A model generated the notes under the pieces. The model saw nothing but the letters and a program-made list of their open reading frames with translations. It was not told the DNA's origin and ran no database searches. Made by a program: the position numbers and the translations under genes. A stretch of DNA of 12,381 bases from a virus (Duplodnaviria; Heunggongvirae; Uroviricota; Caudoviricetes): the IMG/VR virus record IMGVR_UViG_2703718850_000011; one strand, 5' to 3'. Shown piece by piece: positions 1-9,746 of this stretch (position 1 is its first letter; every line of letters begins with the position of its first letter).

Positions 1-486
1 TTAACGGATAAACAGCCAGATCAGCAGACACACCATCACCAGCACAGCAAAATCCATCAGGCTTGCCACATCCCATGCACATGATTCAAAACCGCCCCAC
101 CACGGCATATCATACGCCTGCAATACCCGAACATTTCAATCCAGCGATTATTCAGTCTGGGTGTGTTCGCGCACAATGAAGAACGTACAACCAGAGCCTA
201 CACAACCACAGCACAAACTGCATGAAGGCAAGGTGTTATATCTATAACCTCTCCTGTTTTCATCAACAAACAAAAATCAATTCCCGCCCCAAGGGGAAAA
301 TGATATCGTGAAGTCGATGCAAAAAAGTGTTGCACTCGTGCTATCCCTTGTCGTTAGCGGAGGTTGCGAAAGTCAACAGATAAAGTTATAGTTACACCGA
401 TGCATAAGCATTGCTTAAAATTTAACAACATTCCCTATTAGACTTGAGAATACTGTTAACAACACCCAACAAACTAGGAGTAAAGC

Positions 487-531
487 ATGATTAGAAACTT
501 TCGATTCTCTGATGAGCATCCGGATTTCTGA
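487..531 (+). CDS. Candidate leader peptide ORF, 14 codons (MIRNFRFSDEHPDF)
   Basis: Consensus Shine-Dalgarno AGGAG at 476-480 with 6-nt spacer to ATG 487. Lies 40 nt upstream of the hairpin at 571-601 and about 70 nt upstream of the main ORF. Confidence 0.3.
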   Translation: MIRNFRFSDEHPDF

Positions 532-570
532 TTAGGCTCTAAAAGCACCGAAGTCGGGATATGAGTGCAC

Positions 571-601
571 AAGGGCGGTTTTTAACCGCCCTTAGCTTTT
601 T
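571..601 (+). promoter_or_regulatory. Terminator-like hairpin plus T-tract immediately 5' of the 602 start codon (possible attenuator or translational control element)
   Basis: Perfect inverted repeat AAGGGCGGT (571-579) / ACCGCCCTT (585-593) around a short T-rich loop, then AGC and TTTTT (597-601) running directly into ATG 602. Confidence 0.45.
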
Positions 602-1606
602 ATGGACCAAAGTATGACAATCGAATTCTGTCTGGCTGTCTTGACAAGTAAATCTGTGATAGCCCTTCTTAATTTTCTTTTTCTCGCTTTAGTAATAGTG
701 ATGGGAGCTCTGCTCGGAAGCACGCTTCGAACTGGAAAAAACAGCGATACTAGTGACAAAAAGTTCATTGGTAGCACGCATATGATAGGTATTGGTGCTG
801 CTTTTATCTGCGTCCCCTTCATAGCTTCATTTCTACATCTAAATTATCAGTCACTTTTGCTTCCGCTAGCCGATACAACAGCAGCCGTATACATTGAACA
901 GTTGTTCATGCTGATATCTCTTGCAGGCATAGCTTCCTATCTTGGTTATGGGCTACTTGATAACATTGCAAACAAAGTTCTTCAGAGCCAGGTGCAAGAG
1001 ATTGGCCAGGAGCAAAAAGAAGCCAAACACTCTATCGAAGCTTTAGTTAATGAGAATAAGCAAATCAAGAGCAATGAGAAAAAAATCAGGCTCGAACTGC
1101 TGTATTTGAAAGCTAAAGATGCTGTAGAGTCAGGTCAGCGATATGGTGAGAAAACAACTGAAGAAGATAAGCTAGCTTCTAAGAAGAAATACAATGATGC
1201 CCTTGCTTTTTTAGATGAGGGGCTTAGAGAAATCAATGAAGAAGATGACTATCATTCATTTGACAGATTCATGGTTTTGAAAGCATTTACCCTAAAGCGA
1301 ATTGATGATATTGCAGGCGCGCTGGAAATTGTTAAAAAATTATTAGTGAAAGATAAAACAAATCCAGTCTTGCTTTACAACATGGGTTGTTACCTTTTGC
1401 TATCTAAGCAGCATAAAGATGAACAAGAAGTTAAAGATTTCATTATGAAAGCTTTGACTGTTACTCCAGAGAAAGAGGCGCATAAACCCTTGCAGAAAAA
1501 AATCATAGAAAAAGTTTTGGCGCGCTTGGATTCAGATATACAGGATCTGTTTAATGATGATGAGTTAGCCAGAATCAGAGAGATGGTTGGGAGCAAAGCA
1601 AACTAG
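602..1606 (+). CDS. Hypothetical membrane protein: three predicted N-terminal TM helices, coiled coil, TPR-like helical C-terminal domain; AT-rich cargo gene
   Basis: Only long ORF in the AT-rich island. Hydrophobic segments at about residues 8-38, 60-80 and 97-118; charged coiled coil at about 125-165; helical-repeat C-terminal region. Codon usage strongly A/T-biased, unlike the neighbouring phage genes. Followed by an intrinsic terminator. No obvious Shine-Dalgarno before ATG 602 or the alternative ATG 614. Confidence 0.7.
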   Translation: MDQSMTIEFCLAVLTSKSVIALLNFLFLALVIVMGALLGSTLRTGKNSDTSDKKFIGSTHMIGIGAAFICVPFIASFLHLNYQSLLLPLADTTAAVYIEQLFMLISLAGIASYLGYGLLDNIANKVLQSQVQEIGQEQKEAKHSIEALVNENKQIKSNEKKIRLELLYLKAKDAVESGQRYGEKTTEEDKLASKKKYNDALAFLDEGLREINEEDDYHSFDRFMVLKAFTLKRIDDIAGALEIVKKLLVKDKTNPVLLYNMGCYLLLSKQHKDEQEVKDFIMKALTVTPEKEAHKPLQKKIIEKVLARLDSDIQDLFNDDELARIREMVGSKAN

Positions 1607-1622
1607 CCCATCCTTGTTCTTT

Positions 1623-1652
1623 GAAGCGCCTGTAAAATGGCGCTTGTTTTTG
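1623..1652 (+). terminator. Rho-independent terminator downstream of the 602-1606 gene
   Basis: Stem AAGCGCC (1624-1630) / GGCGCTT (1639-1645) with 8-nt loop TGTAAAAT, followed by GTTTTTG, starting 17 nt after the stop codon. Confidence 0.65.
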
Positions 1653-1831
1653 AGTTCTATACTTTCAGCAGAAAAATAATTTCAGGACTATTTTCAGACA
1701 AATTCATATAAAATAAATAATACCAACATTGAGTATCCGCTCTGTAATTATATAATCTATGTACAGGCTCCTATCGAACGCAAGTCAGCCAGCTGTAGTA
1801 CGTTCTTGCATACGACATGCCGCAGCTTCTG

Positions 1832-2395
1832 TTATTCTGGCACGAAATTCCTCACCGACTTCAAATCCGCCATATTATTCAGCTCTTCCTTCATCTCCCG
1901 CTGGCGACGATAAATCTCGTCATTGCGATCGACCTGTGCCTGAACCATTGCAGTAAGCAGTTCATCCAGTTGTTGCATCGACAGTTTCACCTGCTGGTTT
2001 TCTGCATCGCCCCATACCATGGTTTTTCGCGCAGTGTCAGACTTTGATGCCATTACTGCCGGATAAAGACGAGCCAGTGAGTCGGCCCCAGCATTCCAGG
2101 TACGACCGTTCCATTCGAACGTGAACGGCTGCGCTTCCTGTTCTGTGCGCCAGGCTTCGATTTCCCGCTTTTTGGCATCTCTGGCTGCGGCAATAACTTC
2201 AGGCGTGACTGTGAACGGGGCGATTTCACCCCATCTGCCACTCTGCAGTTCCTGCCAGATTTGCCGGCCAGTTTCTGCTGTATCATTTGCCGAAGCTGTG
2301 TATGGAAGTGGCATTTCCATACCTGAAAACACGACCATGCAGTCAACATCTCCGGTTTCAAGATACCTTTGTTCGCTGATTTTTTTTATTTTCAT
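1832..2395 (-). CDS. Putative tail fibre assembly / chaperone protein (assigned by position), 187 aa from ATG at 2395
   Basis: Immediately downstream of the tail fibre gene with coupled start (TGATG). Size is typical for tail fibre assembly proteins (lambda Tfa 194 aa). I do not recognise the conserved Tfa sequence itself, so the family assignment is positional only. The six-frame ORF starts at GTG 2398; the ATG at 2395 is the likelier start. Confidence 0.5.
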   Translation of the reverse strand: MKIKKISEQRYLETGDVDCMVVFSGMEMPLPYTASANDTAETGRQIWQELQSGRWGEIAPFTVTPEVIAAARDAKKREIEAWRTEQEAQPFTFEWNGRTWNAGADSLARLYPAVMASKSDTARKTMVWGDAENQQVKLSMQQLDELLTAMVQAQVDRNDEIYRRQREMKEELNNMADLKSVRNFVPE

Positions 2396-3858
2396 CACAT
2401 CGTCCTTATAAAAGCAGCAATAATAAACTCACCTTCTCCGGTGTAATCCGGAGTTCCGGATAATGCACGGTAAACACCCGGCAATGTGTGCTTCTCTGTA
2501 CCAGAAAGCCCAATCTTCGGCGACGATAATGCTCCATCCGGAACACTGAATACCACGGGAGTAAGGACGGAGCCCGGGTAATATTGCCCTCGTACGACGC
2601 TAGCTGTTTTAGTGCTGCCACGGCTATTAAAGGCTGCCAGTGTTATGCTTCCAGCATACGGATCACCATAATTATCGTTTGTGGTCATGCTCAGGATTTT
2701 GGCAATATCATACAGGTCAATATTTATTTTCTCCCATTCACTCAGTGAAGGGCCATGTATGGCATCGTATGTTGCCCGATACAGTTCACCGTTCATCCCG
2801 TAAAAAACAGCCATCTTCAGCATCAGCGGGACAGTAAGGTTATTCCGCATCTCATCAGCGAAAAATAAATCAATCACACCTGTAAACTGTACTTCCGGTA
2901 TAATTTCGCAGTCAGCGCTGACCGTATACCGCCCCGGTGTGGCATTTGAGATCCAGTCAAGAAGCACTTCCTTCGACGAAAAGCTGAGAACGTCACCTTT
3001 TGTGAAGATATGCCCGAATCCCAGACTTCCTGCAACAGCGGCCCGCCCCTGCGTTCTGTCATAAATGTCTGACTGAAGCCCATAATTTCCGCCTGCTGCT
3101 GAGTTTCCACTATTTCCATTGATACCCAGAACGTCACACATCTCTTCGGCTGTGGATTGTGACAACAGCTGTTTCCCTTTTTCAGAAACAGGAGCCAGAG
3201 AACACTGCCCGTTACCGCTAAAACTGGGAAACCCATCTTCACCGGATGGAAGACGGCCTAACGCAGTCAGAACGGGATTTAAAGGCTGTTTTCCGTCCAG
3301 CATCTTCATTATCGTTACGGAAAACGCCGGGTCATTACCCAGCGCCTCCGCCAGTTCGTTCAGCGTGTCCAGGGTTTCCGGAGAAGAACCCACAAGAGCA
3401 GCAAGCAGTTTGCGGACAAACGCCGCATTCACTGTTTCCAGACCTGAAGCATCGTCCGGTGGTGTCGGTGTCATAGGGGTACCGGTGAAGACCGGACTAT
3501 CCAGTGACGCTTTTGTCTTCACCTCATTCATGACCTTACTGACTGCAAGGGATGTGGCGGCCTCTGTCTGCGAAGTGCTGTCAGTACGGTTACTGAGCTT
3601 GACAACTCCCTTTGTGGTCGTACTGGCATCTTCCAGGCCCACAGCAGATGCAATCTCCTCTGCCCGTTTTGCCGCATTTTCTGCGCGTGTTGCTGCAGAC
3701 TCAGCAGAACTTTTGCTCTGCACTGCCACCGCTGCACTACCTGCAGCCTCTTCCGCCTTACCGAATGCCTCGCCGGCCAATGATGCCGCCGCTGCTTCAT
3801 AGCCCGCCGCGGTGGATGCGCTCTGTGCCGCTGCCGTTTCAGAAGACCTGGCGTTCAT
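2395..3858 (-). CDS. stf: Side tail fibre protein, C-terminal fragment (487 aa from first ATG); frame stays open upstream to about 4155 without a start codon
   Basis: Ala/Ser-rich shaft repeats (KTSETNA..., SKSSAESAATRAENAAKRAEEIASAV...LEDASTTTKGVVKLS) followed by a globular C-terminal domain, with a small putative chaperone gene immediately downstream (1-nt TGATG overlap). The N-terminal part of a full-length fibre is absent. Confidence 0.75.
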   Translation of the reverse strand: MNARSSETAAAQSASTAAGYEAAAASLAGEAFGKAEEAAGSAAVAVQSKSSAESAATRAENAAKRAEEIASAVGLEDASTTTKGVVKLSNRTDSTSQTEAATSLAVSKVMNEVKTKASLDSPVFTGTPMTPTPPDDASGLETVNAAFVRKLLAALVGSSPETLDTLNELAEALGNDPAFSVTIMKMLDGKQPLNPVLTALGRLPSGEDGFPSFSGNGQCSLAPVSEKGKQLLSQSTAEEMCDVLGINGNSGNSAAGGNYGLQSDIYDRTQGRAAVAGSLGFGHIFTKGDVLSFSSKEVLLDWISNATPGRYTVSADCEIIPEVQFTGVIDLFFADEMRNNLTVPLMLKMAVFYGMNGELYRATYDAIHGPSLSEWEKINIDLYDIAKILSMTTNDNYGDPYAGSITLAAFNSRGSTKTASVVRGQYYPGSVLTPVVFSVPDGALSSPKIGLSGTEKHTLPGVYRALSGTPDYTGEGEFIIAAFIRTM

Positions 3859-4155
3859 CTCGGATGTTTTTGCCTCCTTCGCGGCATTTTCTGCCGCCGT
3901 TGCCGAGGAGGCTGCACCACTGGCGCTTGATGATGCGTTCGTTTCTGATGATTTTGCTGCCTCTTTTGAGGCCTCCGCCTCACGGGCTGAGGTGGCAGCT
4001 TCTGACGCTTTCGCGGTCGCGGTGGATGCTGAGGTGGCGGCTGATTGTTGTGACGCTGCCGCATTCGTTTCTGACGTTTTCGCGGCAACAGCACTGGTGG
4101 CCGCCGCGCTTTTCGAGGACTCTGCAGCGGCTGCACTTTTTGATGCCTCAGAGTC
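3590..4155 (-). repeat. Imperfect tandem Ala/Ser-rich peptide repeats of the tail fibre shaft (coding repeat)
   Basis: Translation in the stf frame: EASKSAAAAESSKSAATSAVAAKTSETNAAASQQSAATSASTATAKASEAATSAREAEASKEAAKSSETNASSSASGAASSATAAENAAKEAKTSEMNARSSETAAAQSAS... The recurring KxSETNA / SSA units generate spurious long ORFs in all other frames. Confidence 0.55.
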
Positions 4156-4394
4156 TCATGTAACTGCGCCGTTAACCCGGACGTGCTGACGTCCCGCCCG
4201 GCAATCCGTACCTGATACCAGCCGTCGCTCAGTTTCTGACGAAACGCCGGGAGCTGTGTGGCCAGTGCGCGGATGGCTTCAGCCCCCGTTTTCACACGAA
4301 GGTCGATGCGGCGGCCAAATCGTTGTAAATCCCCGTAAAGGCAGATGCGCGCCATGCCCGGTGACGCCAGAGGGAGTGTGTGCGTCGCTGCCAT
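3855..4394 (-). pseudogene. I: Tail tip assembly protein I, N-terminal about 82 codons only, continuing out of frame into tail-fibre repeat sequence
   Basis: Starts MAATHTLPLASPGMARICLYGDLQRFGRRIDLRVKTGAEAIRALATQLPAFRQKLSDGWYQVRIAGRDVSTSGLTAQLHETL (gpI-like). From about 4148 downward the frame yields an Arg/Pro/Gln-rich low-complexity string, which is the alternate-frame reading of the Ala/Ser-rich tail-fibre repeats that run in another frame. Confidence 0.7.
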
Positions 4395-6067: not shown

Positions 6068-8559
6068 CGTCCACCTCCGGAGAACAGACCACCATCGCGC
6101 ATCTGCCCGGTCACAACATCCATTGCCGCCTTACGGGCTACGTCATAAACCGCCTTCAGCGCCTGTGGCCCTATCTGACCGTTCGTGCCGTCGTTGTTAA
6201 TCACCACATGGTTATTCTGCTCAAACGTCCCGGACGCCTGCGAGCGGCTGTCCGCCATGCTGCCCGGTGTACCGACATAACCACCGGTGGCATAGCCGCG
6301 CATCAGCCGGTAGAGATTTCCCACGCCAATCCGGCTGGTTGCCTCCTTCGTGAAGACAAATTCACCACGGTGAACAATCCCCGCTGGCTCATATTTGCCG
6401 CCGGTTCCCGTAAATCCTCCGGTTGCAAAATGGAATTTCGCCGCAGCGGCCTGAATGGCTGTACCGCCTGACGCGGATGCGCCGCCACCAACAGCCCCGC
6501 CAATGGCGCTGCCGATACTCCCGACAATCCCCACCATTGCCTGCTTAAGCAGAATTTCTGTCATCATGGACAGCACGGAACGGGTGAAGCTGCGCCAGTT
6601 CTGCTCACTGCCGGTCAGCATCGCCGCCATATTCTGTGCAATACCATCAAAGGTCTGCGTGGCTGCACTTTTTACCTGCAACATACTGTCCGTGGCGCTC
6701 TCTTCCCACTCACTCCAGCCGGACTTCAGGCCTGCCATCCAGCTCCCGCGAAGCTGGTCTTCAGCCGCCCAGGTCTTTTTCTGCTCTGACATGACGTTAT
6801 TCAGCGCCAGCGGATTATCGCCATACTGTTCCTTCAGGCGCTGTTCCGTGGCTTCCCGTTCTGCCTGCCGGTCAGTCAGTCCCCGGCTTTTCGCATCAAT
6901 GGCGGCCCGTTTTGCCCGTTGCTGCTGTGCGAATTTATCCGCCTGCTGCGCCAGCGCGTTCAGGCGCTCCTGATACGTAACCTTGTCGCCAAGTGCAGCC
7001 AGCTGGCGTTTGTACTCCAGCGTCTCATCTTTATGCGCCAGCAGGGATTTCTCCTGTGCAGACAGCTGGCGACGTTGCGCCGCCTCCTCCAGTACCGCGA
7101 ACTGACTCTCCGCCTTCCACAAATCCCGGCGCTGCTGGCTGATTTTCTCATTTGCTCCGGCATGCTTCTCCAGCGTCCGGAGTTCAGCCTGAAGCGTCAG
7201 CAGGGCAGCATGAGCACTGTCTTCCTGACGATCGCCCGCAGACACCTTCACGCCGGACTGTTTCGGCTTTTTCAGCGTCGCTTCATAATCCTTTTTCGCC
7301 GCCACCATCAGCGTGTTGTAATCTGCCTGCAGGATTTTTCCGTCTTTCAGTGCCTTATTCAGTTCCTCCTGACGGGCGGTATATTTCTCCAGCGGTGTCT
7401 GCAGGCGTTCGTAAGCCTTCTGCGCCTCTTCGGTATATTTCAGCCGTGACGCTTCGGTATCGCTCTGCTGCTGCGCATTTTTGTCCTGTTGACTCTGCTG
7501 CTCAGCCTTCTTTCGGGCGGCTTCAAGCGCAAGACGGGCCTTTTCACGATCATCCCAGTAACGCGCCCGCGCTTCATCGTTAACAAAATAATCATCCTTG
7601 CGCAGATTCCAGATGTCGTCTGCTTTCTTAAACGCAGCCTCTGCCTTAATCAGCATCTCCTGCGCGGTATCAGGACGACCAATATCCAGCACCGCATCCC
7701 ACATGGATTTGAATGCCCGTGCTGTCCTGTCTGCCCAGGTCTCCAGCGTGTCCATGTTCTCTTTCAGGCGGCGGGTCTGGTCATCAAACCCTTTCGTTGC
7801 GGCTTCGTTCGCCGCCTGCAATGCCCCGGCTTCATCGCCGGAACGCTGCAACTGAGCAACATACGCAATCTGTTCCGCCGTCACGTTATGGAACTGGCGT
7901 GCCATCGCCGTCAGCCCCGACGTCGGGTCTGTGGTCAGCTTCCCGAAGGCTTCAGCGACCTTGTCCACCTCCACGCCGGATGCAGAAGAGAAACGCGCCA
8001 CACTCTGGCTGATGGACGCAATCTGAGCCTCACCGCTTACCCCCGCCTTAACCAGTGCGCTGAGTGACTCGCTGGTCTGGTTAAACGTCAGCCCTGCCGC
8101 CTGCCCGGCTCTGGACAGGACCAGCATACGATCTGCCGTCAGACCCGACTGATGACCGGAAAGGACCAGCGTTTTGTTGAAATCGGACAGGGTTGAGTTG
8201 CCCTGATACCAGGCATACGCCAGCGCACCGGTCGCCACCGCCAGCGAGGTGGCCCCGACCATCGGCAGGGTGATCGCACCGGCAAGCCCCCTGAACATGG
8301 GGATCATCCCGCCGAAGGAGTCCTTAACCTGACCACCCTGTTGCAGCAGGATCAGCCACGGACTCTGCCCGCCTGCAAGCTGCGTGGCCACGTCGGTGAA
8401 CTGCGCAGGCAGCATACGCATGGCAGCTTTATACTGCCCGACGGAAATCCCCGCTTTCTGTGCAGCCAGTGCCTGTCGGCTCAGCGACTGTTCAACGACT
8501 GCCGCTGTTTTTTTCGCATCACTTTCCGTACCGGAAAAATGACGCCTGACTCTGGCCAT
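6064..8559 (-). CDS. H: Tail tape measure protein (lambda gpH family), 831 aa from first ATG; native 5' end apparently lost
   Basis: About 830 aa with coiled-coil-rich centre and glycine-rich C-terminal region (GIVGSIGSAIGGAVGGGASASGG), located immediately upstream of M-L-K-I. The same frame is open from 8628 and encodes ...GDLVVDLSLDAARFDEQ upstream of the ATG at 8559 with no start codon, so the native N-terminus (about 22 aa in lambda H, 853 aa) is clipped. Confidence 0.9.
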   Translation of the reverse strand: MARVRRHFSGTESDAKKTAAVVEQSLSRQALAAQKAGISVGQYKAAMRMLPAQFTDVATQLAGGQSPWLILLQQGGQVKDSFGGMIPMFRGLAGAITLPMVGATSLAVATGALAYAWYQGNSTLSDFNKTLVLSGHQSGLTADRMLVLSRAGQAAGLTFNQTSESLSALVKAGVSGEAQIASISQSVARFSSASGVEVDKVAEAFGKLTTDPTSGLTAMARQFHNVTAEQIAYVAQLQRSGDEAGALQAANEAATKGFDDQTRRLKENMDTLETWADRTARAFKSMWDAVLDIGRPDTAQEMLIKAEAAFKKADDIWNLRKDDYFVNDEARARYWDDREKARLALEAARKKAEQQSQQDKNAQQQSDTEASRLKYTEEAQKAYERLQTPLEKYTARQEELNKALKDGKILQADYNTLMVAAKKDYEATLKKPKQSGVKVSAGDRQEDSAHAALLTLQAELRTLEKHAGANEKISQQRRDLWKAESQFAVLEEAAQRRQLSAQEKSLLAHKDETLEYKRQLAALGDKVTYQERLNALAQQADKFAQQQRAKRAAIDAKSRGLTDRQAEREATEQRLKEQYGDNPLALNNVMSEQKKTWAAEDQLRGSWMAGLKSGWSEWEESATDSMLQVKSAATQTFDGIAQNMAAMLTGSEQNWRSFTRSVLSMMTEILLKQAMVGIVGSIGSAIGGAVGGGASASGGTAIQAAAAKFHFATGGFTGTGGKYEPAGIVHRGEFVFTKEATSRIGVGNLYRLMRGYATGGYVGTPGSMADSRSQASGTFEQNNHVVINNDGTNGQIGPQALKAVYDVARKAAMDVVTGQMRDGGLFSGGGR

Positions 8560-8609
8560 CTGCTCGTCAAATCTGGCCGCATCCAGACTTAAATCAACGA
8601 CCAGATCGC

Positions 8610-9746
8610 CTAACTGACCTTCGAGTAGTCACGGGACAACTGTTCGTAGGAAACGCCAAGACCGGCGGCGATATACCGCAGCAGCGCCTGTTCAAGCGCA
8701 GAAAATCCATTGTCTGAATCCTGCGCGGTCTGCAGTTTCAGATCATCCCCAGGGAAAAGGTGCGGAATTTTGACACCGCCCAGCGTCACGTGATTCGTGT
8801 CATACCAGCTGGAGAACTTCTCCAGAATATTAATAAGCGGATTATCCTTCTGCCCCTGCGGCGCACCGGCGATATATTCAAAGGCCTTTTCGGTATCAAG
8901 TTCACTTTCGATTGTGGCTGCATACATGGCCTTCACAATGGCCGACTGAAGCTGTGTTACCTGCAGGGAATCGAGCATCTTCAGCCGCTCCATGACGCTG
9001 TAAAACTGATTAGCCCCACGGGTCTGCCCGTCCTCCACCGGCTCGAAAATATGCAGCATGGCCGGACGCCCGGTGGGAAGTTCACGCGGGATCCGTTCCC
9101 ATCCTCCACTACCAGAGAACGGAAAATCATCCTCACAGATGTGGTACGCGACGGCACGGCCATATCGATCGACCTCCACACCGGCCCGCAGAAAACGGTT
9201 CCCCATACCGTGTCCAGGCGTGTCCACCCGTTTCGGACTCACGGCTTTAAAACGCGTACGGAATAACTGCGTGCTTTCCGTATCCCAGACCGGCTGCACA
9301 AAGATTTCGCCGTTAAACGCATGAACGCCCACACCTTCACGGATAAATTCCGTGAACGTGCGTTTTCCTTCCACGTCGATCTCGCCAAACATCCCTTCGG
9401 CGTATTCCGACCAGGCCGCCTCCACCTCATCGACAAAGCTTTTTGCTGCGGTCTCCCGCATCCCCAGCCAGCGCCAGTTCGGACGGTAGCTGATCAGAAA
9501 CATATGCCCGACAATGTGATCTTTATGCAGGGCCACCGCATTAGCCGCTATTCCGTTATTGCGCACCAGATCATCTGCCCGGGCATTCCCCAGACGCAAC
9601 GCGGGCAGCAGGGCCGCATCGGCACTCTGCGCCGGTGGCAACCACTCCGCCATTTGCCCGCCAAATCCTGCGCCGCCCCCGTTGTAGCTGAGACTCTCAC
9701 GAAGCGGAACGCCGTTCACATCAATCAGGACAGGCGTTAGTTTCAT
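8610..9746 (-). pseudogene. B: Portal protein (lambda gpB family), truncated: 378 codons, where lambda-type portals are about 530 aa
   Basis: The N-terminal and central portal regions are recognisable (DDLVRNNG, LFRTRFKAVSPKR, EPVEDGQTRGANQFYSVMERLKMLDSLQ, AIVKAMYAATIESELDT, LRYIAAGLGVSYEQLSR). The frame ends at TAG 8610-8612 and the C-terminal third is absent. The tape-measure frame begins within about 20 bp. Confidence 0.85.

Follow-up and report, generated by a model that had tools for sequence, protein, structure and literature searches.

SLATT effectors and the λ protein RexB are membrane effectors of abortive infection, and HK97 gp15 and P22 SieA are inner-membrane superinfection-exclusion factors. 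More generally, within bacterial immunity, the membrane-acting effectors of defence and addiction count among the components that are least understood. Tetratricopeptide repeat (TPR) domains bind short extended peptides, those of the three-repeat clamp type binding acidic C-termini. We analyzed here a gene coding for a membrane protein with a TPR domain, located at 602..1606 (+ strand) of a 12,381-nucleotide stretch of tailed-phage DNA (IMG/VR record IMGVR_UViG_2703718850_000011; the whole stretch is hereafter named the window). An earlier note, made from the letters of the window, had taken this gene, hereafter the main gene, for a single-gene unit. This claim fails, as a conserved micro open reading frame (micro-ORF) and an intrinsic terminator lie at 487-603, between the promoter and the gene start. 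The cassette is laid out as a strongly translated micro-ORF, a terminator, a weakly translated inner-membrane protein (its Shine-Dalgarno, or SD, sequence is weak) and a second terminator. We consider this anatomy as robust, and put forward a function for the cassette as a hypothesis.

The micro-ORF and its leader RNA

Searches for relatives of the main protein yielded a small close family: a set of 5.8 billion proteins contained 16 clusters of it, in which all the named members are Enterobacterales, and a set of 1.84 billion proteins contained 13 representatives at E < 1e-30. Three clades were distinguished by their identity to the window protein: A (Enterobacterales, 50-100%), B (35-38%) and C (~29%). 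Upstream of every family member whose locus came with upstream DNA, i.e. down to 29% protein identity, a micro-ORF is present. In the window it has 14 codons plus a stop (487..531, + strand), codes for MIRNFRFSDEHPDF, and is preceded by the SD sequence TAGGAG (475..480, +), read 6 nt before the ATG and kept as (T/G)AGGAG in all clade A loci. The consensus of the peptide is MI[RM][NKT][FL]R[FY]SDEHPDF in clade A and M[NK]K[FI]K[FL][FH]DERPDL in clade B, and the two clade C peptides are MNAFIKLDEWPIF and MKLHDEWPDF. Peptides of the close family have 10-14 residues, and their last six codons read D-E-(H/R/W)-P-(D/I)-(F/L)-stop across all three clades.

Every codon of this motif varies (GAT/GAC, GAG/GAA, CCG/CCT/CCA, TTC/TTT/TTA/TTG), the D, E and P codons by synonymous changes only. 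That the motif survives through synonymous codon changes argues for a selection working on the encoded peptide. Among clade A loci, the micro-ORF is 89-96% identical at the nucleotide level and its flanks ~35-50%, the main proteins being 52-68% identical. A 24-nt pattern of the micro-ORF, searched in IMG/VR, was found next to the main gene only. A regular expression of the motif, written after the peptides were known, gave 52 matches on both strands of 1.07 Mb of fetched loci, 50 of which adjoin family genes on the same strand, with one distinct off-target. Standard annotation omits the micro-ORF in every record examined, and both this partner and the micro-ORF/terminator/effector layout appear undescribed.

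The more distant relatives, which carry the Pfam domain PF20303 (YLATT, presented below) together with TPR repeats, have no upstream micro-ORF. Instead, a micro-ORF with its own SD starts 12-14 nt after the stop of the main gene. The corresponding peptides, MSDRKPIH (Andreprevotia lacus), MKTDLRPIH and MDLWPIR, share with the window family the ending D-x-(basic/aromatic)-P-(I/D)-x-stop, which may be compared with the clade C ending ...DEWPIF. Over the close and distant groups, the micro-ORFs have 7-14 codons, with no hydrophobic signal segment.

Ahead of the micro-ORF, a consensus scan revealed a site predicted to act as a sigma-70 promoter (TTGCGA-17-TATAGT, 364..392, +). A block of ~34 nt, GTTGCGAAAGTCAACAGATAAAGTTATAGTT, shows no difference between loci of E. 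coli and Klebsiella aerogenes, the flanks of which otherwise do not align, and Pantoea-like loci carry TTGCAC/TATAGT versions of the promoter. Right after the predicted -10 element stands a short hairpin, in the window (393-486) as in the equivalent regions of loci L004, L010, L014 and L032, with differing sequences (GATGCATAAGCATTG, AGATGCTAAATGCATCT, ATGCTTTATACAGCAT); such a stem-loop, at the 5' end, might stabilise the transcript. The -35 element is preceded or overlapped by palindromes, e.g. CTTGCACCGGTGCAAG in L014, so that an operator is possible.

Between the micro-ORF and the main gene, a terminator scan identified an intrinsic terminator (571..603, +) with the stem AAGGGCGGTT/AACCGCCCTT followed by AGCTTTTTAT. 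A GC-rich hairpin and a T-run are found at the equivalent place in all clades, with clade-specific stem sequences. They stand 13 to ~80 nt after the micro-ORF stop, and the main start follows the T-run by 10-45 nt, or by up to ~85 nt in clade B under the RefSeq start. Leaders were folded with RNAfold, as minimum-free-energy structures only and not exhaustively, and inspected by eye: a competing antiterminator pairing was seen in none of 14 leaders, and the terminator formed in the free RNA and persisted when a ribosome footprint was set on the stop codon. A hairpin enclosing the whole micro-ORF of clade A (window 484-552) can form between its start region (GCAUGAUUAGAAA) and its stop region (UUUCUGAUUAGGC), and no pair in it is changed on both sides. 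A 6-bp hairpin with the stop codon in its loop is found in clade B (L034-L038), with the compensatory changes GACTTG/CAAGTC, GATTTG/CAAATC and GACTTA/TAAGTC. An Rfam scan of 250-1850 returned chance-level matches only. A dependence on phage Q or N antitermination was also considered and ruled out, since the orientation of the cassette relative to the phage operons varies between prophages.

The main gene and its product

The ORF at 602..1606 (+), of 334 aa, is the sole long one of the region, and homologues sharing conserved motifs at 29-99% identity exclude a chance ORF. Its true start is likelier at 614, giving 330 aa, to judge from the alignment: ATG 602 abuts the T-run of the upstream terminator and has no SD sequence, and ATG 614 lines up with the starts used in Klebsiella and other homologues. 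In the identical E. coli 1303 locus, the RefSeq gene starts at ATG 614 as well (330 aa, hypothetical protein WP_040082179). The earlier note had described an AT-rich gene, unlike the phage genes in composition and with its own terminator, and both descriptions hold. GC content is 38.7% and GC content at third codon positions (GC3) 37%, versus 50-58% and 48-67% in the phage genes, and the terminator scan placed a hairpin at 1624-1645 (AAGCGCC...GGCGCTT) with a T-run, GTTTTTGAGT, the whole covering 1624..1655 (+).

The N-terminal part of the protein is a three-transmembrane (TM) domain, residues ~19-119 (656..958, +; TM1 19-41, TM2 58-80, TM3 96-119). Its topology, checked by hydropathy and the positive-inside rule, is predicted to be N-out/C-in, because the only basic loop (4 K/R) falls between TM1 and TM2. 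An AlphaFold2 (AF2) model was built with a 21-sequence alignment. Its mean predicted local distance difference test score (pLDDT) is 77, low in the TM part and ~90 over residues 130-330. AF2 helices agree with the hydropathy segments (residues 17-46, 59-77, 94 onward), and TM3 runs on as one helix to residue 182, before seven shorter helices. Residues ~120-182 (959..1147, +), continuous with TM3, form a cytoplasmic helical stalk (AF2 single helix 94-182, pLDDT 73-95 in the stalk). They are followed by the TPR domain, residues ~183-306, and by a conserved acidic C-terminal segment with a capping helix, residues 307-334 (1148..1603, + for the whole). The three TM helices, the helical-repeat C-terminal domain (confident in the model) and the lack of any catalytic motif had all been proposed beforehand, and are recovered here. 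A charged coiled coil had been proposed too: the long helical stalk stands, but a coiled coil is plausible rather than certain, as the heptad pattern is moderate (a/d positions 56% hydrophobic, 27% elsewhere).

Conservation is found at both ends of the protein. In the TM domain, G35, G39, G63, F68, P72, F73, S76, F77, Y82, E99, G109, Y113, G115 and D120 are invariant or nearly so; in the C-terminal part, the invariant or near-invariant residues (≥90% of sequences) are K232, R233, N260, C263, Y264, K278, Q298, D312, L316, F317 and E321. Placed on helix-A positions via the TPR consensus, K232, R233, N260, C263 and Q298 probably line the TPR groove. The protein also has a conserved non-helical C-terminal segment, residues 308-321 (nt 1523-1564), reading D-x-D-I-x-D-L-F...E-L, which might sit in the TPR groove in cis, in competition with the peptide. 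The spacing from D to F is identical in this segment (D-I-Q-D-L-F) and in the micro-ORF (D-E-H-P-D-F), a likeness too short to count as evidence. A class I holin was considered and rejected: a three-TM, N-out/C-in protein is compatible with it, but no locus is a lysis cassette, and the cytoplasmic domain has 210 residues.

The earlier note had been unable to assign a family, and this is overturned by Pfam, hhalign and AF2 together. PF20303, YLATT ('YEATS-Like-Associating Three TM'), matched residues 26-133 of the window protein over model positions 3-101 of 107, at 21.3 bits (E 2.6e-4), below the gathering threshold of 26.7 bits. Of 21 family members, 9 had a match to it, none of which reached the threshold (best E 2.8e-5). 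What is shared with YLATT proteins is the N-terminal three-TM domain, with its glycine/small-residue and VPF-type motifs; what differs, besides the sub-threshold score, is that no YEATS-like domain was found in the window protein or among the Pfam-annotated neighbours. Among the distant matches of the family profile, P0079 has PF20303 at 72.4 bits (E 3e-20) plus TPR repeats, and P0095 and P0096 carry PF20303 and TPR according to precomputed Pfam matches. Aligned by hhalign to P0096/P0095/P0079, the family profile gave a probability of 98.2% (E 3.6e-14) over 199 columns, from TM1 into the TPR, and the signature KR...N..CY...D.F is retained in this distant YLATT-TPR group too.

As for the TPR domain, TPR_17 scored 16.5 bits on the window protein, below its cutoff of 24.4 bits, and some family members reached TPR_2 at E 4.5e-6. 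The TPR helix-A consensus is WYNLGxAY, and the segment LYNxGCY of the main protein fits it. The C-terminal domain has the helix-turn-helix repeat superhelix of TPR proteins. Foldseek supports the TPR fold weakly, with three TPRs plus a capping helix and 113-134 residues aligned, and solved or viral structures gave no relative past generic TPR/PPR similarity. Judged by these comparisons, the main protein is a divergent YLATT-stalk-TPR protein. NCBIfam profiles gave nothing useful for it, and PHROG families no match.

We found no published account of YLATT/PF20303, of the family accessions or of the peptide string in the literature available to us; YLATT is absent from the text of the eLife 2020 conflict-systems paper, and the DefensePredictor paper and its supplements contain neither the family nor its accessions. 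YLATT is a family defined by computation only, with no experimentally tested member. Its cytoplasmic partner domain is a TPR in the window protein, P0079, P0095 and P0096, and a different one in L055, an unannotated ORF of a Paenibacillus cellulosilyticus megaplasmid (NZ_CP054613.1, 2998-3831). There, a YLATT-like three-TM domain is followed by a low-complexity linker and a non-TPR C-terminal domain, which may be winged-helix-like, showing that the YLATT TM module pairs with varied cytoplasmic domains. No micro-ORF with the motif was found at the L055 locus. Among the distant relatives, the P0042 subgroup has an N-terminal extension, and a gene of this subgroup lies 12 nt downstream of a gene for a metallo-beta-lactamase-fold protein (ComEC/Rec2-like, HPHNDH motif), in an apparent operon (L052 1-2283).

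Distribution and prophage context

Clade A is always found as a solitary cassette in variable regions of prophages, in at least five unrelated prophage types, and also on eight IMG/VR contigs. In E. coli 1303 it stands at the tail-fibre end beside potB; in E. coli GN25 and UID2309220033, in a Rac-like prophage between int and tRNA-Ser; in Klebsiella aerogenes, at the tail-fibre end of a myovirus-type prophage; in Proteus and Providencia, in siphovirus-type prophages between the tail chaperones and an Arc/Bro/Ant island; in Pantoea, at the end of a Mu-like prophage. A further copy is at the end of an e14-like prophage, beside an icd fragment, umuDC, dinI and an invertase gene. This recurrence, at variable ends or internal moron slots, upholds the view that the gene is horizontally acquired moron-type cargo of a prophage end. 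The survey of neighbourhoods that had been suggested gave the same picture, every Enterobacterales context being a prophage, a prophage remnant or a small plasmid. The proposal of a tail-fibre hotspot stands in part: prophage slots are indeed occupied, but the family is also cargo of a 4-kb ColE1-type plasmid, and its distant relatives are in ordinary chromosomal sites.

The cassette is rare, clade A being present in 3 of 5,426 complete E. coli genomes. The close family is absent from the 185,579 species-representative genomes of GTDB, and a YLATT-TPR query of the same representatives matched only Andreprevotia and one unrelated TPR protein. In the Rac-like prophage of GN25 and UID2309220033, a SMODS nucleotidyltransferase and a SLATT-domain protein, i.e. 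a pair resembling a cyclic-oligonucleotide-based anti-phage signalling system (CBASS), are encoded ~10 kb from the cassette (L002/L003 1-982).

Clade B is carried by a 3,991-bp ColE1-type, non-mobilisable plasmid of K. pneumoniae, as its sole sizeable non-replication gene. This plasmid, partition-less and high-copy, is known from ~70 records of several countries, and is clonal at 100% identity. One copy (L054, OW968207.1, 4,768 bp; 2270-3040) has an IS1 inserted at codon 3 or 4 of the main gene in its long version, past the micro-ORF terminator but ahead of the start annotated by RefSeq. A second plasmid record, NZ_CP095604.1, likewise has IS1 at the cassette. These insertions, which stand for one or two events only, are compatible with a selection against expression of the large gene. 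P0034, searched against plasmids, gave no match.

Bases 1-4,151 of the window are 99.98% identical to E. coli 1303 (NZ_CP009166), and the window sequence coincides with the start of another IMG/VR record, IMGVR_UViG_2675903580_000004. How far the mobile cassette extends, with its promoter, micro-ORF, main gene and both terminators, was deduced from the block common to other genomes: two further E. coli genomes have precisely 297..1678 (+), with 90% of the nucleotides identical. There it sits in another prophage, with the integrase gene on one side and tRNA-Ser on the other. This block matches a low-GC stretch, ~300-1830. Next to it lies a DUF4376 tail-fibre-chaperone-like gene (1832..2398, - strand; ORF list and RefSeq annotation of the identical E. 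coli 1303 locus), with which the prophage tail module ends. As had been stated, this gene and the main ORF are convergent.

Compared with that of E. coli 1303, of which it is a copy, the window prophage has decayed (window 3855-4394 and 8559-9746 versus 1303 locus 16151-20636). Through a 4.5-kb deletion, with its junction near 4150, gpJ is lost and the N-terminal part of tail assembly protein I is joined out of frame to the tail-fibre region. About 378 codons of the portal gene are left, and the tape-measure gene lies next to the cut end, so that the head genes and the majority of the tail genes seem to be absent. Within this decayed prophage, the cassette is intact. Outside of it, a small hydrophobic ORF (window 1-245, -), ending with MPWWGGFESCAWDVASLMDFAVLVMVCLLIWLFIR and its stop at the window edge, bears the RefSeq label of a hypothetical protein with a frameshift, and may be what is left of another membrane moron.

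Interpretation and comparison with known systems

We propose, with a probability of about 45%, that the cassette is a peptide-controlled, membrane-damaging module, of toxin-antitoxin or abortive-infection-like type. The micro-ORF peptide would bind the TPR groove via its acidic C-terminus, D-E-x-P-(D/I)-(F/L)-COOH, and the 571-603 terminator would set a large excess of peptide over membrane protein. As long as the short, presumably labile peptide is made, the effector would be inactive. Should expression of the element stop, upon phage-induced host shut-off or upon loss of the plasmid or prophage, the peptide would decay, and the stalk-tethered TM helices, rich in small residues, would then assemble and permeabilise or depolarise the inner membrane. 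In this scheme, peptide-TPR binding, toxicity of the TM domain, direction of control and biological role are points that we infer; the sign of control could be the opposite, the peptide activating rather than inhibiting.

A wider version of the proposal is more doubtful. It holds that a micropeptide of 7-14 residues with a D-x-x-P-x-x C-terminus is read by the TPR of YLATT proteins, its level reporting expression of the element and its loss opening the effector, as an intracellular Gram-negative counterpart of the RRNPP receptors, wired to a pore and not to a transcription factor. If true, the peptide-gated module would include, beyond its copies in prophages and plasmids, the chromosomal YLATT-TPR genes of various bacterial phyla.

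Several observations weigh against a peptide-controlled toxic module. A tblastn search of 50,697 sequenced phage genomes gave no match, and none of the PADLOC-DB v2 defence models matched at E up to 1. The clade C gene is flanked by fdh and kup, no phage gene being visible around it, and the distant YLATT-TPR relatives adjoin rho/bacA or AttH/YggL, which are unremarkable chromosomal sites. In the P0042 subgroup, no D-x-x-P-x-x micro-ORF is recognisable. The count of 50 motif matches out of 52 is descriptive, because the expression was written post hoc. Peptides of 7-14 residues may be too short-lived for a stoichiometric inhibition, and a short ORF and then a terminator ahead of a gene are what one classically finds in leader-peptide attenuators.

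This last point leads to an unlikely alternative, according to which the micro-ORF is a cis-acting leader: a ribosome arrested at D-E-x-P-D-F-stop would control read-through of the terminator, and the released peptide would have no function. A strong SD, a short ORF, a terminator and a gene start 10-45 nt past the T-run, with no room for a separate promoter, are all as expected. TnaC and SpeFL are arrest peptides with conservation toward the stop codon, and here too conservation is strongest over the six codons that precede the stop. The nucleotide-level conservation of the clade A micro-ORF, within its predicted hairpin, and the compensatory changes of the clade B stop-codon hairpin point the same way, but the clade A hairpin has no such changes. 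Moreover, none of the 14 leaders has a predicted antiterminator, and blocking the last codons plus 10 nt downstream does not keep the terminator from forming in the predictions. The distance from stop to terminator, 13 to ~80 nt, is in clade A beyond the steric reach of a stalled ribosome. Finally, the homologous micro-ORF of the distant relatives is downstream of the gene, where it is unable to attenuate. Because these relatives swap the gene order yet keep the association, and because no antiterminator is predicted, we consider a trans-acting partner, plausibly a ligand of the TPR on sequence grounds, as more likely than a leader.

Two other explanations, both improbable in our opinion, concern the protein rather than the peptide. 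The main protein could be a superinfection-exclusion factor blocking phage genome injection, like HK97 gp15 or P22 SieA, as it is an inner-membrane protein encoded in a moron slot, beyond the tail-fibre genes or beside int/att, by a separate transcription unit expressible from a repressed prophage. However, the upstream terminator and weak SD throttle its expression, which fits poorly with a constitutive barrier, and most of the protein, including the TPR groove, is on the cytoplasmic side, whereas the injection machinery arrives in the periplasm. Nor would exclusion account for the co-inherited peptide. The protein resembles no PHROG family, and the module is also found on a 4-kb plasmid and in non-phage chromosomal sites. 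Those chromosomal sites, occupied by clade C and the distant relatives, make a physiological, non-conflict role possible: the protein would be a membrane scaffold or envelope-stress sensor, the TPR recruiting a host protein and the peptide tuning the interaction. Bona fide YLATT-TPR relatives beside rho, bacA/UppP, AttH and YggL, at host-like GC, are in keeping with it, as are the lack of a catalytic motif and of a match to defence models. It is difficult to reconcile, however, with a gene AT-rich relative to its surroundings, with Enterobacterales contexts that are all prophages, prophage remnants or small plasmids, and with its rarity, the gene being present in 3 of 5,426 E. coli genomes and the close family absent from all species-representative genomes.

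Whichever way the peptide acts, the locus is a small and tractable case, with two genes in 1.4 kb, found both in E. coli and on a plasmid that is widespread among clinical Klebsiella pneumoniae, and it yields a concrete hypothesis on the gating of YLATT effectors. If the micro-ORF peptide is the ligand of the TPR, it would represent a new class of functional bacterial micropeptide, and standard annotation, by missing the micro-ORF, would hide half of the system. Scans for single-gene morons should therefore check the leader regions of AT-rich cargo genes.

The peptide-controlled module that we favour can be compared with several known systems. Leader attenuators and arrest peptides (trpL, TnaC, SpeFL, ToiL-topAI) also combine a short, well-translated ORF, a terminator and a conserved C-terminal motif at the stop, but here no competing antiterminator is predicted, and the micro-ORF is downstream in distant relatives. 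With the SLATT effectors, which have two TM helices (CBASS, DRT10), and with λ RexB, the likeness is one of proposed principle: a small oligomerising TM module, restrained by a cytoplasmic sensor, damages the membrane when triggered, and such modules are carried by prophages and defence loci. The main protein has three TM helices, not two or four, and the comparison implies no sequence relationship; it has neither a nucleotide-signal synthase nor a RexA-like partner, its sole partner being a peptide of 7-14 residues.

RRNPP receptors (Rap-Phr, PlcR-PapR, and AimR-AimP of the arbitrium system) likewise consist of a TPR gene adjoining a short-peptide gene, in some cases in temperate phages. They differ in that the peptides described here have no signal sequence or pro-region and would act inside the producing cell, and in that the receptor is membrane-anchored, with around three repeats, no helix-turn-helix or phosphatase output, and Gram-negative hosts. 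In size and fold, the TPR domain resembles the carboxylate-clamp three-TPR domains (Hop TPR1/2A, CHIP, FKBP38/52, Sec72), which bind peptides of EEVD-COOH type, a likeness that may reflect the abundance of such domains in the PDB. Mapped from sequence alone, invariant Lys/Arg and Asn residues fall at the expected groove-facing helix-A positions, K278 being also invariant, and the candidate ligand has an acidic, conserved C-terminus. Lastly, as in toxin-antitoxin and post-segregational killing modules, two adjacent, co-oriented genes are found on mobile elements, i.e. a partition-less 4-kb plasmid, prophages and a decaying prophage, with the small product in presumed excess. The putative antitoxin would here be a peptide of 7-14 residues rather than a folded protein or an RNA, and the putative toxin a 330-aa membrane protein with a sensor domain.

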